Positions 3,001 through 9,000 of a stretch of DNA of 25,192 nucleotides are shown here, one piece after another. The stretch's first letter is position 1; every line of letters begins with the position of its first letter. The stretch comes from a virus. The stretch lies in UHGV virus genome UHGV-1402771; one strand, written 5' to 3'. Made by a program: the position numbers.

Positions 3001-6000
3001 AAAATATCCGCTTATGACTTTGCAGGAGGCAAGGGATAAAGCATGGACTGCGAGGAAAGACATCTCGGTTGGCATCGATCCGGTAAAGGCGAAAAAGGCT
3101 TCGTCTAACAACAATTCCTTTAGTGCGATTTACAAGGAATGGTACGAGCACAAGAAGCAAGTCTGGTCAGTAGGCTATGCAACTGAACTTGCCAAAATGT
3201 TTGATGACGACATTTTACCTATCATCGGCAGCCTTGAAATTCAGGATATTGAGCCGATGCAACTTCTGGAAGTAATCCGCAGATTTGAAGATCGCGGTGC
3301 AATGGAGCGAGCCAACAAAGCACGCAGAAGATGCGGCGAGGTTTTCCGTTACGCTATTGTCACCGGAAGGGCTAAATATAACCCGGCACCTGACCTTGCT
3401 GACGCCATGAAGGGATACCGCAAGAAGAACTTCCCGTTTCTTCCTGCAGACCAGATCCCTGCATTCAACAAAGCACTGGCAACATTTTCAGGAAGTATCG
3501 TATCGCTCATTGCGACCAAAGTTTTACGCTACACAGCCCTAAGAACGAAAGAGCTTCGTTCCATGCAATGGAAGAACGTCGATTTTGAAAACAGGATTAT
3601 CACTATCGACGCCAGTGTGATGAAGGGACGCAAGATTCATGTTGTCCCGATGTCGGACCAGGTGGTTGAACTTCTCACTACGCTAAGCTCAATCACCAAA
3701 CCAGTATCAGAGTTTGTTTTTGCCGGGCGCAACGATAAGAAGAAGCCAATCTGCGAGAACGCGGTACTGCTTGTGATCAAACAAATCGGCTATGAAGGTC
3801 TGGAAAGCGGTCACGGATTCAGGCATGAATTCAGCACGATTATGAACGAGCACGAATGGCCTGCTGATGCTATTGAAGTGCAACTGGCACATGCCAACGG
3901 CGGATCTGTACGCGGAATTTACAACCATGCTCAGTATCTCGATAAGCGCAGAGAAATGATGCAGTGGTGGGCGGATTGGCTTGATGAGAAGGTAGAGTGA
4001 TCCGCCTTAACAACTATCGAAGAGCACAAAGCCTTGTGTGTCTCATAGGCTATGAAACAATCATTTTACATGGTTACTTCACTACTTCCGCACAATATGA
4101 TATCGTTCACAATCTAAAAACATTAATAATTTATCCATTACCGCGGTTAATGCCCGTCGCTTCCAACGGGCTTTTTTGTAAATTATATTTTTATTACCTT
4201 ATATTAATATTGGTAATATGTCTGCATGATGTTTTATATTTATTGCGTGAGCTTCGCATGATAGCTGGAGCATCTCTTGTCATCACTAATTAGCTCCGCT
4301 TTATCCGTTCTTGCCCATATTATATTTCTTTTTATTATTTTTGCTGGATTACCGGCTGCTGCACACATAGATGGCACATCTTTAGTTACAATACTCCCAT
4401 ACCCAATGACAGATCCGCTTCCAACAGATACCCCTTTCATTATAGAGACATTTCTCCCTACCCATACGTAACTAGATATAATGATATCTTTTGCCCAATT
4501 AATCCTTTTTTTGCTATGAATATCAAATATAGGATGCCCATCTGATGCACGCAAAATAACATCTCTTGCTATCATGCAGTCATGGCCAATTGTAACATTG
4601 CACTTATCAGTGACGACTTCAAAACCTGCACCTATTGTCGTTCTTCTACCGATAATAACTTTTGAACCTTTTGTTGCGACAATATCACCTTTAATCTTAC
4701 TGTTTTTATGTATTCTTACGTAATTATTATCACCCCTAAATATTACGGTAAGCCATCGACACTCAACATCATCTTCTATAATAAGTTTGTTATTGTTTCC
4801 ATTGAACTGAACTTTATTCTCTTTGCTATTTACAAGATCTCCACATACAAAAATATTACCTGATCCATTATCATCAACGGAAAACGAGTCTTGAGTCTTG
4901 AGTCTTGAGTCTTGAGTCTTGAGTCTTGAGTCTTGAGTCTTGAGTCTTGACATATTAGTATCCTACGTTATTTTACCACTAGTTACTTTTCTTGTCATTA
5001 AAAAGCATTTAAATTTTTATATTTAATTTCGTTGACGTCAATGTTTTTTGCCAATGTACTTACTTCTTTATGTGAGCAGTTCATATTTTTGACGCCAACG
5101 AAACATTTAGTGCTTCCCTTCTATTAAGTCTAACCTAGCTTTTATTCTTTCTATTTCTCTGCGCTGCCATGCCGCCTCGATATAGAATAAGAGATCAGGT
5201 CTGACCCCCCATCTAGATCCTGCTGGCGTTATTTCAACGCGCTCAATGATGTCTTCCATTACCATCACTGGATTATCATCCTCATCAACAATGATGCTCC
5301 CGTCATTATCAGTCAGCGGCATTTCCCTTTGGCCAGTAATGACGTCATCATATACTGCGGGATAATCGTCATAGCAAAGAAAGGCATAGCGGCATGTTGT
5401 GCTTTCTTCTTCCATGAGTCCGTGAGAAATAAGAACATCACGAAGTTGCTGCGCGATTACACCATGATGTATCCTCGCCCCTTCTTCCCCCTTTATAGCG
5501 ACAGCGTTCAGCCATTTATAAGCGATATACCTGACGTCACCCCAGGCATCCAGCAATGTTTCGTCAGGAGAGACCGGCTCTGTCTTTAATGTTCCGTCAC
5601 TGGTAACCACAGGATTGGAGCCAAGATAAACTATCGAGAACCTGTTTCCCGGACCACCAAGAGCATTTACATTATCAAGATAAGGTTTAACATCTCCGTT
5701 CTCAAAAAGATGTTCGAGTGCGTTATATACCGCGCGACGTGGAGTACTGCTTCCGGAACCATGCAACGTTATCATTGCACCATCTGCTGAAGACGTTGTT
5801 TCACCGCCGCTAACGATTAATCTCTGAGCGGTAACATCATCAGACGGTACTTTCTTCGCAATAATGGCGTAATTACCCTCAAGTTTGACTTCCGCGCGAA
5901 CTTGTCCTGATGTACCTGCATGGACAGTCAGTGACTGGACGGCAACATCATCTGTGAAATCAACGGGTACAGGAACCGTCCTCACGCCTGACGTCGACAT

Positions 6001-9000
6001 AAAAGTAGGAAGCGTTCTGTTAGGAGTGGCTCCGTAGACAAAATCCCTTGAAACAAATTCTTCCTGTTTAATTTTCACCCTGAAACAATACAAATCAGCC
6101 GGGTGACCATCGTGAACATAAGGATATTTTCTGTTGTTATCCCCTATGCTCCATGGGTTTAGAAAGTCTTCCCCACCGAAAATGTAGTACAGCCAGTTGT
6201 CTTTGATACAAACTGAACCAACACCAACCGCAGAGTTAACTATTCCGCCCTGATAAATCTGATCAGTAACATTAACCCACTCTACATTATCCAGACTCCA
6301 CTCATTGACGTTAACTCTGGTCATAAATGTTCTTGGATAGTTTCCTGCATAACGGTTATCAGGTTCTCCTCCTTCCCACTCACCAAATGCGCGCTCACTG
6401 CCAAAAATAATCAGCTCATCGCCAACTTTGGCAAAAGGAAGGTTTGAGTGATGAACATTATTTGGGAAGCGAAGAGAATTCCATGATGTACCTAAATCAG
6501 AGCTTCTGTGCAATGAACTACCGGGTTGAGTACTTAATGTCCCCCTGGTCGTCAGATACAGAATGCCATCATAATATTTTACACATGGCTCAGATGCATT
6601 CGCCTCATATTCTGCAGGTATGCGTCTGCGAACAAAGCTACCAGGAGAACCGAAAGCATCAGAGAAATAGAGTATCCCAAGCTCGCGTGGACCAATATCA
6701 CCATTATGGTAGCCAACAGCAAAACTGTTATCGCTAATCGTCGCAAAACTGTGAATCTCAGTAACAGGAGTGCTTCCGTCAACAAAAGAAGGAATAGTTC
6801 CAAGACTGGTTTTTCTCCATGGTGACGAGTGAAATGATGTACCAAAACTCCAGTATCTACCCTCGTTATTCTGATCCACATCCTGGGTATTTTGCGTCGT
6901 AACTGTAAAAGTATTTTTATCAATAACAGTAGTCACCGTCATATTCCCGGTAACACCTGTAACACCAGAGTTTGAGAAGTTGACAAAATCACCAGCAAAT
7001 AATCCGTGATCAGTAATGCGAATATAAGCGACTTGCTGATTTGCTGCTTTCGTTATACCACCATAAACGCGAAGGCTGCGACTCATTGGGCGATCCCACA
7101 ACTCTGCAACCTGCAGTTTATTTCCGCTCACGGTCCGCGTCTCAATTACAGCAAAAAGGCGATTTCTGACAACCCCCATACTCATGCAGTGATAGTTAAC
7201 TGTGGGATAGTTTTCATGTAAATCTGTAAGCCATTCCGGCGTTGTCCAGGTCTTCCCGTCATCTCCTGAGCGAACCCATGCAACATGGAGGTTATTTACA
7301 CCATGGCGGTCTCCAGCCATAAAAGGCGCATAGATGACATTGTCATATACAAACGTTTTATCCTGCGTCCAGGCGTTGTACCACGGTGTATCTGTAATTT
7401 TAAATAACTCTCCCTGGATAAAATCTTCAGAAACATAAAAAAGAGGCTGACCCGGTATTCTCTCAAATAAAAAACGAGCATTTTTAAATCGACTGACATC
7501 TGGAAGAGTTGATACTTTAAAAGTAAGCCCTCGCCCATCTATCTTTTCACCACCTGTTGCAACAGAAAGTAATTCTGATAGAGCTGATGTATCATCATGA
7601 ACACCATCACCAATAGCCCCCCAACCTCTTACATCATAACTGTCTCTCCATCTTGCTATCTGAAGTTTTGGGTATTTATTCGCTCCATCTGTGTCTTCTA
7701 ATTGCTGCCGTAACTGATCAGGATCATACTTCAGCACATTAGGAAAATAGAACTGCTGCGCACCATACGCATCATAAACAGCCATAGAATGGCCTTGCAC
7801 GGTAACGAATTTGGCAATCTGTCCGTTATATACCGGATATCCAGCAGCGTTAATGATTATTGGTTGCGAAACAGGAACGTGAGAACCGTCTTCATTCTCC
7901 ACATAGACCTGAATCTGGTTTTCTGTATTTACAGGATCAGTGTCAATTTTACCGATATAAATTTTGCCATTGGCTACGGCTTTAAAAGAACGCGCCATAG
8001 TGAAGAGTTGCGAAGGCATACTCACTACAACATTGGCTGTAATGTCTGTCATTTAATTTGCTCCAGATACAAGGAATCGCCGAAGCATGGCTACGGTGAA
8101 TTTTGGGCATAAAAAAACCCAGCCGAAGCTGGGTCGTTGCGTTGGTTATCTGTCAGTAGTTATGTACTGAAGGAGGTAATTCTTTATTCTTAAGTCTCAT
8201 CCATGCGGAAAGATTCGTTGGTCCGTCTGGCTCATTGATATCAACATCTCGTGTGTGATTGATTAAAACGTCTCTCGCCATATCGATAATACGGGAGAAC
8301 TCATAACCGCAGTCATGACATCTGCCGGAATAGTTCGATTGAATTTGTTTTAATGCCGGATACAGTTCGCGGAATAATGCCTGTGAACGGTTGGCATAAT
8401 CCCATAACCATACAAGGCTGTTTGCTTCTTTTGCAGAAAGCTCGTCGGTTTTCTTCTCTTGTTTGCCAATGAACTCACCTTCAAGTGGAACTCGAGCTGC
8501 AAGTGACAGTGCTTCGGTAAACTGCTCCTCACTGATTTCTTTGTACGAACATCCAAAATGGGATTTCAGTGACGACCACATGGTGATCATCGCCTTAGCC
8601 TGTTTTTCTTTTGGCAGAGACTGACCGCGACTCATGACGAGTTGTTTAATGGCTTCCTGCTGTTCAGTGGTGATTTTACCCGGCAACGCCTTTTTAACTT
8701 TGCGTGGGTTAACTACATGGCCTTTAGTCAAGTATTCGTAGAGCACATCGTCACACTCTTCCTGATACTGGATTACCTTGTCGCGGATTTCAGGGCGGAC
8801 TTTGTTAGGACTGATGCTGTTCAACCAAGCTGCCAATTTTCGTAAAGCCATACAAATCATGGCTTGCACCCCACCGGCAGAAGGTATGGTGATTTCCACC
8901 ATACCCTTCGAGAAGCGTTGAGAAATCTTCTTATGTTGAGATTTCCAGTCTAGCCCCATTCCCTCAACGATAGGTTTCATTGGGGTGTACGGCTCACCGT

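Follow-up and report, generated by a model that had tools for sequence, protein, structure and literature searches.

The gene at 5107..8052 on the minus strand of the window, by which we mean the whole 25,192-nucleotide stretch of UHGV virus genome UHGV-1402771, is, judged from its sequence, the already characterised siaK1 endosialidase tailspike of the E. coli K1 phage CUS-3, and its architecture is already known. Its product has the same length as the CUS-3 protein (981 aa; ABQ88383.1 / CAJ29292.1; Stummeyer et al. 2006, PMID 16689790), and 979 of the 981 residues are identical (99.8%); CUS-3 carries I in place of V9 and R in place of G767. The DNA is 99% identical to CP000711.1, and the gene is present in about 181 of 5426 complete E. 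coli genomes. An earlier sequence-only reading had proposed a chimera of a P22-type docking domain and a polysialic acid enzyme. This is supported, the same chimera having been published as CUS-3 siaK1. We consider it almost certain that a temperate P22-like phage of CUS-3 type, with E. coli K1 as its host, uses the protein as its receptor-destroying tailspike, through a mechanism of five steps.

The span given by that reading, which named no strand, is a single intact ORF, uninterrupted from its ATG to the stop codon that follows the 981 codons. Translation of the plus strand over the same span was rejected on account of many stops, and the gene is therefore placed on the minus strand, as are all features below unless stated otherwise.

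Domain architecture of the tailspike

The first 113 residues (7714..8052) form a P22-family head-binding, or particle-binding, domain. Pfam PF09008 is covered from position 1 to 113 of 113 (E = 2e-66; 221.7 bits against a cutoff of 24), and the alignments with the structures of Sf6 gp14 (PDB 7sg7, E = 3e-66) and P22 gp9 (E = 1e-51) are free of gaps, the structure matches spanning aa 1-118. Identity to P22 gp9 amounts to 86 of 113 residues (76%) and drops to 24% over aa 114-160. The likeness to P22 gp9 noted earlier for the first ~115 residues is real and does stop there, although "almost residue for residue" slightly overstates an identity of 76%. Sf6 gp14 is closer than P22 gp9, with nine mismatches in 113 residues (~92% identity, a hand count from the alignment), and 89% DNA identity with Sf6 gene 14 persists as far as nt 7712, which is codon 114.

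At codon 113/114 the similarity to P22 and Sf6 ends and that to the K1F endosialidase (62% identity) begins, the blastp alignment to K1F gp17 starting at query aa 114, which corresponds to K1F aa 214. The linker (aa 114-145; 7618..7713) is the first segment in common with K1F gp17, to which it is 53% identical, and is the site of the module junction. The chimera probably originated by recombination at codon 113/114, directly after the conserved KYDPDQ motif.

Four Pfam endosialidase domains match the remainder, and the solved endoNF structure (PDB 1v0e / 3gvl) aligns to aa 145-817 with E = 0 and without major gaps; the region previously described as sialidase-like is accordingly a true endosialidase, a class (endo-N-acetylneuraminidase) which we take to be CAZy GH58. 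An N-terminal extension (aa 146-212; 7417..7617) matches PF12218 over its full length (E = 3e-37), the alignment to the endoNF crystal chains beginning at aa 145/146. It is followed by the catalytic six-bladed beta-propeller (aa 213-662; 6067..7416; PF12217, positions 1-367 of 367, E = 1e-233), into which a lectin-like beta-barrel domain is inserted (aa 324-406; 6835..7083; PF12195, 1-83 of 83, E = 1e-46). The stalk, or tailspike domain (aa 663-817; 5602..6066; PF12219, 1-160 of 160, E = 1e-77), ends at T817 just ahead of the cleavage site, and this end matches the aligned ...GSNPIVT at which the mature endoNF chains terminate. Altogether six Pfam domains score above their curated cutoffs, with Head_binding, End_N_terminal, End_beta_propel, End_beta_barrel and End_tail_spike at full profile length.

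The catalytic residues of endoNF, reportedly numbered E581, R596 and R647 by Stummeyer and colleagues in 2005, are all identical in the tailspike, where they map to E488 (6589-6591), R503 (6544-6546) and R554 (6391-6393). For R647, the R-to-A change in PDB 3gvj bears out the numbering. Two Asp-boxes can be read from the sequence, SGDDGKTWT (aa 262-270), exactly at nt 7243-7269 as had been stated, and SSDLGTSWN (aa 517-525; 6478-6504), which that reading had likewise listed. In the stalk, the position of K1F Q853, presumably a sialic-acid-binding residue, is occupied by M760, and CUS-3 carries M there too. The GenBank record of CUS-3 siaK1 assigns endo-alpha-sialidase activity (GO:0016996) with direct-assay evidence (PMID 16689790).

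Directly after the stalk follows a C-terminal intramolecular chaperone and self-cleaving domain (aa 818-981; 5110..5601), in agreement with the endosialidase-like chaperone suspected there. Peptidase_S74 (PF13884) matches aa 818-878 (57 of 58 positions, E = 3e-10, 40.8 bits against a cutoff of 22), and the structure of the endoNF C-terminal domain, PDB 3gw6, matches with E = 5e-66 over aa 698-979. A search for the serine autocleavage site, which the earlier reading had suggested, located S818 (5599-5601), paired with K823 (5584-5586); the pair is kept within TSDGTLK, aligned to TSNGERK of endoNF, and corresponds to K1F S911/K916. The K1F record divides its protein into gp17* and gp17-CTD, the mature gp17-CTD peptide being annotated from the aligned serine.

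Relatives and genomic setting

K1F gp17 (endosialidase F; PDB 1v0e / 3gvl / 3gw6) has the same domain order as the window tailspike from aa 114 to the end, with 62% identity overall and 55% in the stalk, and shares the catalytic E/R/R, the Ser/Lys self-cleavage pair and the chaperone domain. Its N-terminus, by contrast, is a T7 gp17-like adaptor of ~213 aa in place of the P22 head-binding domain, and K1F is a lytic T7-like phage without neuO, unlike the phage of the window. Beyond the CUS-3-type phages, the nearest catalytic module found is in the tail fiber of the Uetakevirus vB_EcoP_ZX5 (QTH80017.1), an epsilon15-like phage; over its C-terminal 847 aa this fiber shares 95.5% identity with aa 134-980 of the tailspike, but its N-terminal adaptor, of 192 aa, is a different one. 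The endosialidase of phi92, which acts on K92, is a relative at 60%, about as distant as K1F endoNF.

The N-terminal head-binding domain is held in common with the tailspikes of P22 (gp9), Sf6 (gp14) and HK620 (gp9), to which no similarity was detectable beyond aa 113. The receptor-binding parts of those tailspikes are right-handed beta-helix enzymes acting on O-antigen, recorded as endorhamnosidases in P22 and Sf6. Their genes nevertheless occupy the same slot, 3' of ant and gene 16 and 5' of a receptor-modifying conversion gene and int. In the window, the antirepressor gene ant (8153..9076; Pfam P22_AR_N, P22_AR_C) lies directly 5' of the tailspike as in P22, with a terminator-like hairpin between the two (8116-8135); the P22 record likewise gives ant, terminator, gene 9. 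The conversion slot between tailspike and int holds neuO in the window, oac in Sf6 and gtrABC in P22. In CUS-3, int, neuO and ant have the same order and orientation as here.

The neighbour of the tailspike had been described as a gene that modifies the same capsule, and the gene immediately 3' is indeed neuO, encoding polysialic acid O-acetyltransferase (4240..4953; Hexapep Pfam match and CUS-3 annotation). Its ORF of 237 aa begins with MS(RLKTQDS)x3 in frame. In the poly-psi variable repeat (4886..4950), nine copies of AAGACTC start 2 nt past the ATG; TRF reports a period of 7 and 9.3 copies at 100% match, and the repeat was also read directly. Phase variation of neuO follows a multiple-of-three rule for repeat number (PMC3046976). 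The nine repeats of the window are in frame, whereas the 19 in the RS218 record are out of frame.

On the plus strand lies an IntS-type tyrosine integrase (2807..4000; Pfam Phage_integrase, Phage_int_M, Arm-DNA-bind_3), 98.6% identical in DNA to CUS-3 int. A 16-bp attP core (2667..2682), an exact match to the annotated Sf6 core, is located between int and a xis-like gene (2378..2593). The CUS-3 locus is integrated at argW, whereas that of the window is in attP form. No tRNA was found in the window, argW having been expected as the mark of an integrated prophage end. The left boundary was rejected as such an end, and the left 2.6 kb are the phage's own ea/xis end joined via the intact attP. Contiguity of ea, int and tailspike in E. 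coli chromosomes was considered as a second integration site and rejected in the two chromosomes examined: in strain 19AR1321 it is an IS-deleted remnant with pieces joined out of order, and in SCAID URN1-2021 a tandem or duplicated prophage arrangement.

Proposed mechanism and alternative readings

The domain architecture, the conserved residues, the near-identity to an assayed protein and the gene order are apparent at the sequence level; that the window allele is enzymatically active, forms trimers, is cleaved and docks on the virion we infer from the CUS-3 and K1F literature. The C-terminal chaperone domain (aa 818-981) would aid trimerisation of the tailspike and then cut itself off at S818 by means of the S818/K823 pair, so that it would be absent from the virion; the predicted autoproteolysis converts a ~109-kDa precursor into a mature protein of ~90 kDa and a fragment of ~18 kDa. 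The mature trimer would dock through its head-binding domain (aa 1-113) onto the gp4/gp10 tail hub, for which the window also holds the genes. The beta-propeller (aa 213-662, with E488/R503/R554), helped by the beta-barrel and the stalk, is expected to bind and cleave alpha-2,8-polysialic acid, and this cleavage would open a path for the virion across the K1 capsule to the outer membrane. In the lysogen, phase-variable neuO, placed between tailspike and int in the slot for lysogenic conversion, would O-acetylate the same polymer.

Partners for the head-binding domain are supplied by the P22-like virion module of the window, as PHROG matches indicate: a gp4-like adaptor (17137..17619; phrog_637, head-tail adaptor Ad3), a gp10-like tail-hub gene (15710..17128; phrog_578, head closure Hc3) and a gp26-like needle (15009..15710; phrog_1219, tail needle). 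Docking would here involve an Sf6-type gp4 and not a CUS-3-type gp4, the domain being ~92% identical to Sf6's own. For the CUS-3 virion, EMD-5946 is listed as a cryo-EM reconstruction, and its paper appears by title in PMC5850374.

We also have to consider that the gene, though intact in sequence, might be a relic, its CUS-3-like prophage being defective or in decay and its product no longer built into infectious particles, with neuO as the sole selected function. CUS-3-like prophages are often decayed, many being cut to about 8 kb around neuO (PMC9659370), and an intact tailspike gene is therefore no proof of a viable phage; an IS-deleted remnant of this kind was seen directly in 19AR1321. 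Against this, the virion genes from terminase through tailspike are all intact ORFs, each matched by a PHROG over its full length, the tailspike retains every catalytic and cleavage residue, and the intact xis-attP-int junction is more in keeping with a phage genome than with a remnant, so that we regard a relic as very unlikely. A central domain of non-sialidase fold, in which the Asp-box-like strings were chance matches, would have been a further explanation. The generic BNR_2 Pfam model does match weakly and below cutoff (E = 0.003), and no support for such a fold was found; the full-length endosialidase propeller match and the endoNF alignment described above rule it out.

Somewhat less remote than a relic, but still improbable, is a shift in substrate preference relative to K1F endoNF, towards O-acetylated polysialic acid or the mixed alpha-2,8/2,9 K92 polymer, by which NeuO-modified hosts would become infectable. 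Such a shift would accord with the modest identity to endoNF both overall and in the stalk, with the exchange of Q853, presumably a stalk binding-site residue, for M760, with the similar distance of the K92-acting phi92 enzyme, and with the carriage of an acetylase gene by the phage itself. Conservation extends to the catalytic residues and the entire architecture, however, and the record of the CUS-3 enzyme names it simply an endo-alpha-sialidase. NeuO lowers killing by a K1 phage (PMC9659370), a result that does not concern this enzyme in particular.

A CUS-3 cassette on an Sf6-type backbone

DNA comparison identifies the phage as a mosaic relative of CUS-3 and not CUS-3 itself, while the tailspike is the CUS-3 gene. 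The region from int to ant is 98.6-98.9% identical to CUS-3, whereas 17139-22184 (coat, scaffold, portal) is 64-75% identical or unalignable, and the stretch from gp4 to portal is 99.3% identical to Sf6. The virion module of CUS-3 is of its own type; the remainder of that in the window is of Sf6/HK620 type. The presence of the CUS-3 int-neuO-siaK1-ant cassette on such a backbone is ordinary mosaicism among P22-like phages. The combination, over at least 80% of the window, was absent from the phage records and complete E. coli genomes searched. We see an even chance that the window is a previously undescribed mosaic phage, with the CUS-3 cassette on an Sf6/HK620-type backbone, in attP (non-integrated or tandem) form and with neuO switched on.

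The chimera is a standard case of host-range change by exchange of the receptor-binding part of a tailspike while the virion-docking part is kept, and CUS-3 serves in a review as a standard illustration of how tailspikes exchange modules. In addition, the prophage pairs an enzyme that destroys its receptor with a gene whose product modifies that receptor. The CUS-3 chimera and this pairing were all published between 2005 and 2014, and the sole new information is the location of a copy of the tailspike on an Sf6-type backbone. If the mosaic is indeed undescribed, the host-range and conversion cassette would move as one unit between types of P22-like chassis, and one head-binding domain would serve CUS-3-type and Sf6-type tail hubs alike.

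Identity and domain structure of the tailspike

The region at 5107-8052 of the window holds, on the minus strand, a single ORF of 981 codons from ATG to stop; a plus-strand reading was rejected, as its translation meets many stops. The sequence-only reading of this region is confirmed, and strand was the sole omission there. In a megablast search of phage records, window 4000-9100 matched CUS-3 (CP000711.1), a P22-like temperate phage of E. coli K1, at 99% identity and 100% query cover, and in the matched stretch CUS-3 carries siaK1, annotated "endosialidase tailspike protein", as well as ant and the neuO poly-psi repeat. 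The protein aligns without gaps to CUS-3 ABQ88383.1 and is identical at 979 of 981 residues, differing only at V9 (I in CUS-3) and G767 (R in CUS-3). The CUS-3 record carries endo-alpha-sialidase activity (GO:0016996) with direct-assay evidence (PMID 16689790). The gene is also present at 99.7% DNA identity in the K1 strains UTI89, IHE3034, NU14 and UM146, and over at least 80% of its length in 181 of 5426 complete E. coli genomes. It encodes the already known CUS-3 endosialidase tailspike, previously published and characterised by experiment.

Six Pfam domains match the protein, each above its curated cutoff: Head_binding (aa 1-113), End_N_terminal (aa 146-212), End_beta_propel (aa 213-662) with End_beta_barrel (aa 324-406) inserted within it, End_tail_spike (aa 663-817) and Peptidase_S74 (aa 818-878). 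Among solved structures, the Sf6 and P22 tailspike N-termini match aa 1-118, the K1F endosialidase chains 1v0e and 3gvl match aa 145-817 (E = 0), and the chaperone-domain structure 3gw6 matches aa 698-979. The Pfam domains and the endosialidase structures exclude a non-sialidase central fold, and the earlier view of a chimera of P22-type docking, endosialidase and chaperone parts is supported. Both Asp-boxes read from the sequence are in place: SGDDGKTWT spans aa 262-270, at just the coordinates given before (nt 7243-7269), and SSDLGTSWN spans aa 517-525 (nt 6478-6504).

Residue mapping onto K1F gp17 (endosialidase F, endoNF) shows that E488, R503 and R554 are identical counterparts of the K1F catalytic residues E581, R596 and R647. 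The R-to-A change in PDB 3gvj corroborates K1F R647. The serine autocleavage site looked for in the C-terminal domain is predicted at S818/K823, to which K1F S911/K916 map, in the motif TSDGTLK; at the aligned serine the K1F record divides the protein into mature gp17* and a gp17-CTD that is released.

The module junction

The expected P22-like N-terminus followed by a loss of similarity was recovered, with 76% identity to P22 gp9 over aa 1-113 against 24% over aa 114-160; Sf6 gp14 is closer still, with 9 mismatches in 113 positions by manual count from the alignment. The junction is sharp, because K1F gp17 similarity (blastp, 62% identity to aa 980) begins at aa 114 and Sf6 gene 14 DNA similarity stops in codon 114, at nt 7712. 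The motif KYDPDQ immediately precedes it. CUS-3 serves as an example of module exchange in a review, which describes its N-terminal domain as common to HK620, Sf6 and P22 and its catalytic domain as common to K1F, whose own N-terminus is T7-like (PMC5380687).

The epsilon15-like Uetakevirus vB_EcoP_ZX5 (MW722083.1) encodes at 925-4044 a tail fiber of 1039 aa, the last 847 of which are 95.5% identical to tailspike aa 134-980. The same endosialidase module appears to have passed recently to an N-terminal adaptor of a third type.

Gene neighbourhood and proposed function

The capsule-modifying gene said to lie beside the tailspike is indeed there: neuO (4240..4953) follows immediately downstream on the same strand. 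It starts with ATG, TC and nine perfect AAGACTC units (4886-4950) and encodes a hexapeptide-repeat acyltransferase with the N-terminus MS(RLKTQDS)x3. Since nine repeats are a multiple of three, the 237-aa ORF is in frame and phase-on, whereas the CUS-3 RS218 record has 19 repeats, no neuO CDS and is phase-off. A promoter-like site lies just upstream of neuO (minus strand, 4998 to 4970).

On the far side of neuO come an IntS-type integrase gene (2807..4000, plus strand), a 16-bp attP core (2667-2682) that matches exactly the one annotated in Sf6, and a TorI-like excisionase gene (2378..2593). Sf6 has the same order of tailspike, receptor-modifying gene, int, attP and xis, with the O-antigen acetylase gene oac in the slot; in P22, gtrCBA separates gene 9 from attP, which is followed by int. 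Upstream of the tailspike, a terminator-like hairpin (8116-8135) is followed by ant, Arc-like (9143-9316, minus strand) and Mnt-like (9394-9645, plus strand) genes of the immunity-I or "ant moron" region, and a complete, intact P22-type virion set (gp16, 20, 7, 14, 26, 10, 4, coat, scaffold, portal, terminases). The mechanical call of the tail-needle ORF (15009-15812, minus strand) is 34 codons too long at its GTG start; because the PHROG match starts at aa 35, the gene likely begins at 15710, overlapping the gp10 stop codon.

Domain architecture, conserved residues and gene order are seen in the sequence itself; how this allele acts, cleaves itself and docks is inferred from the nearly identical CUS-3 protein, which has been assayed, and from its homologue K1F endoNF. 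The C-terminal domain would chaperone trimer folding and then cleave itself off at S818, and the N-terminal domain would dock the trimer onto the gp4/gp10 hub. The propeller, with barrel and stalk, would bind and endo-cleave alpha-2,8-polysialic acid, letting the particle penetrate the K1 capsule; in a lysogen, NeuO O-acetylates the same polymer. NeuO is reported to lower killing by a K1 phage (PMC9659370).

Two less likely alternatives bear on this scheme. CUS-3-like prophages often decay, and the gene is possibly part of a dead relic; every virion ORF in the window, however, is intact. A substrate preference shifted relative to K1F is likewise possible, as the stalk is just 55% identical to that of K1F and M760 occupies the position of the K1F binding residue Q853.

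A K1 cassette on an Sf6-type backbone

The left end (window 1-2806) carries phage early-left genes (Ead/Ea22-like, DUF551, a homologue of a gene that has an ASCH-domain annotation in RefSeq, and the TorI-like excisionase), followed by the attP core and int. Host origin was rejected for this end: its left 2.6 kb is a phage ea/xis end joined via attP, as likewise in the free phage genomes N7, HF4s, Sf6 and HK620. The argW tRNA is absent and the left end contains no tRNA; with the intact attP and ea/xis end, this indicates a circular-phage or tandem-lysogen form. The string annotated as "attR core" in CUS-3 is also present ahead of the xis-like gene, at 2358-2373, which suggests that the right boundary of the CUS-3 record leaves out its own excisionase. 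In a CUS-3-like prophage of E. coli SCAID URN1-2021 (NZ_CP082824.1, 1518000-1567000), blocks of nin-to-lysis genes are repeated and a xis-attP-int junction lies internally; either the lysogen is tandem or partly duplicated, or the arrangement is an artefact of the assembly.

The immI region (about 9090-10484) is unlike that of CUS-3, which apparently is without arc according to a 2008 paper. It also encodes two proteins that carry export signals, of 104 aa (9642-9956, signal-peptide-like N-terminus) and 161 aa (9982-10467, LLAGC lipobox), which may be superinfection-exclusion candidates because they occupy the position of P22 sieA.

The window is not CUS-3 itself, but a mosaic of the CUS-3 int-neuO-siaK1-ant cassette and an Sf6/HK620-type backbone. 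Sf6 is 99.3% identical to window 17139-22184 (gp4, coat, scaffold, portal), where CUS-3 is 64-75% identical or unalignable, and 13260-23629 is 96-97% Sf6-like. Among the phage records and complete E. coli genomes searched, none covered 80% or more of the window, and none had the exact combination of cassette and backbone. The combination is ordinary P22-like mosaicism, and the K1 cassette is thereby seen on a second chassis.
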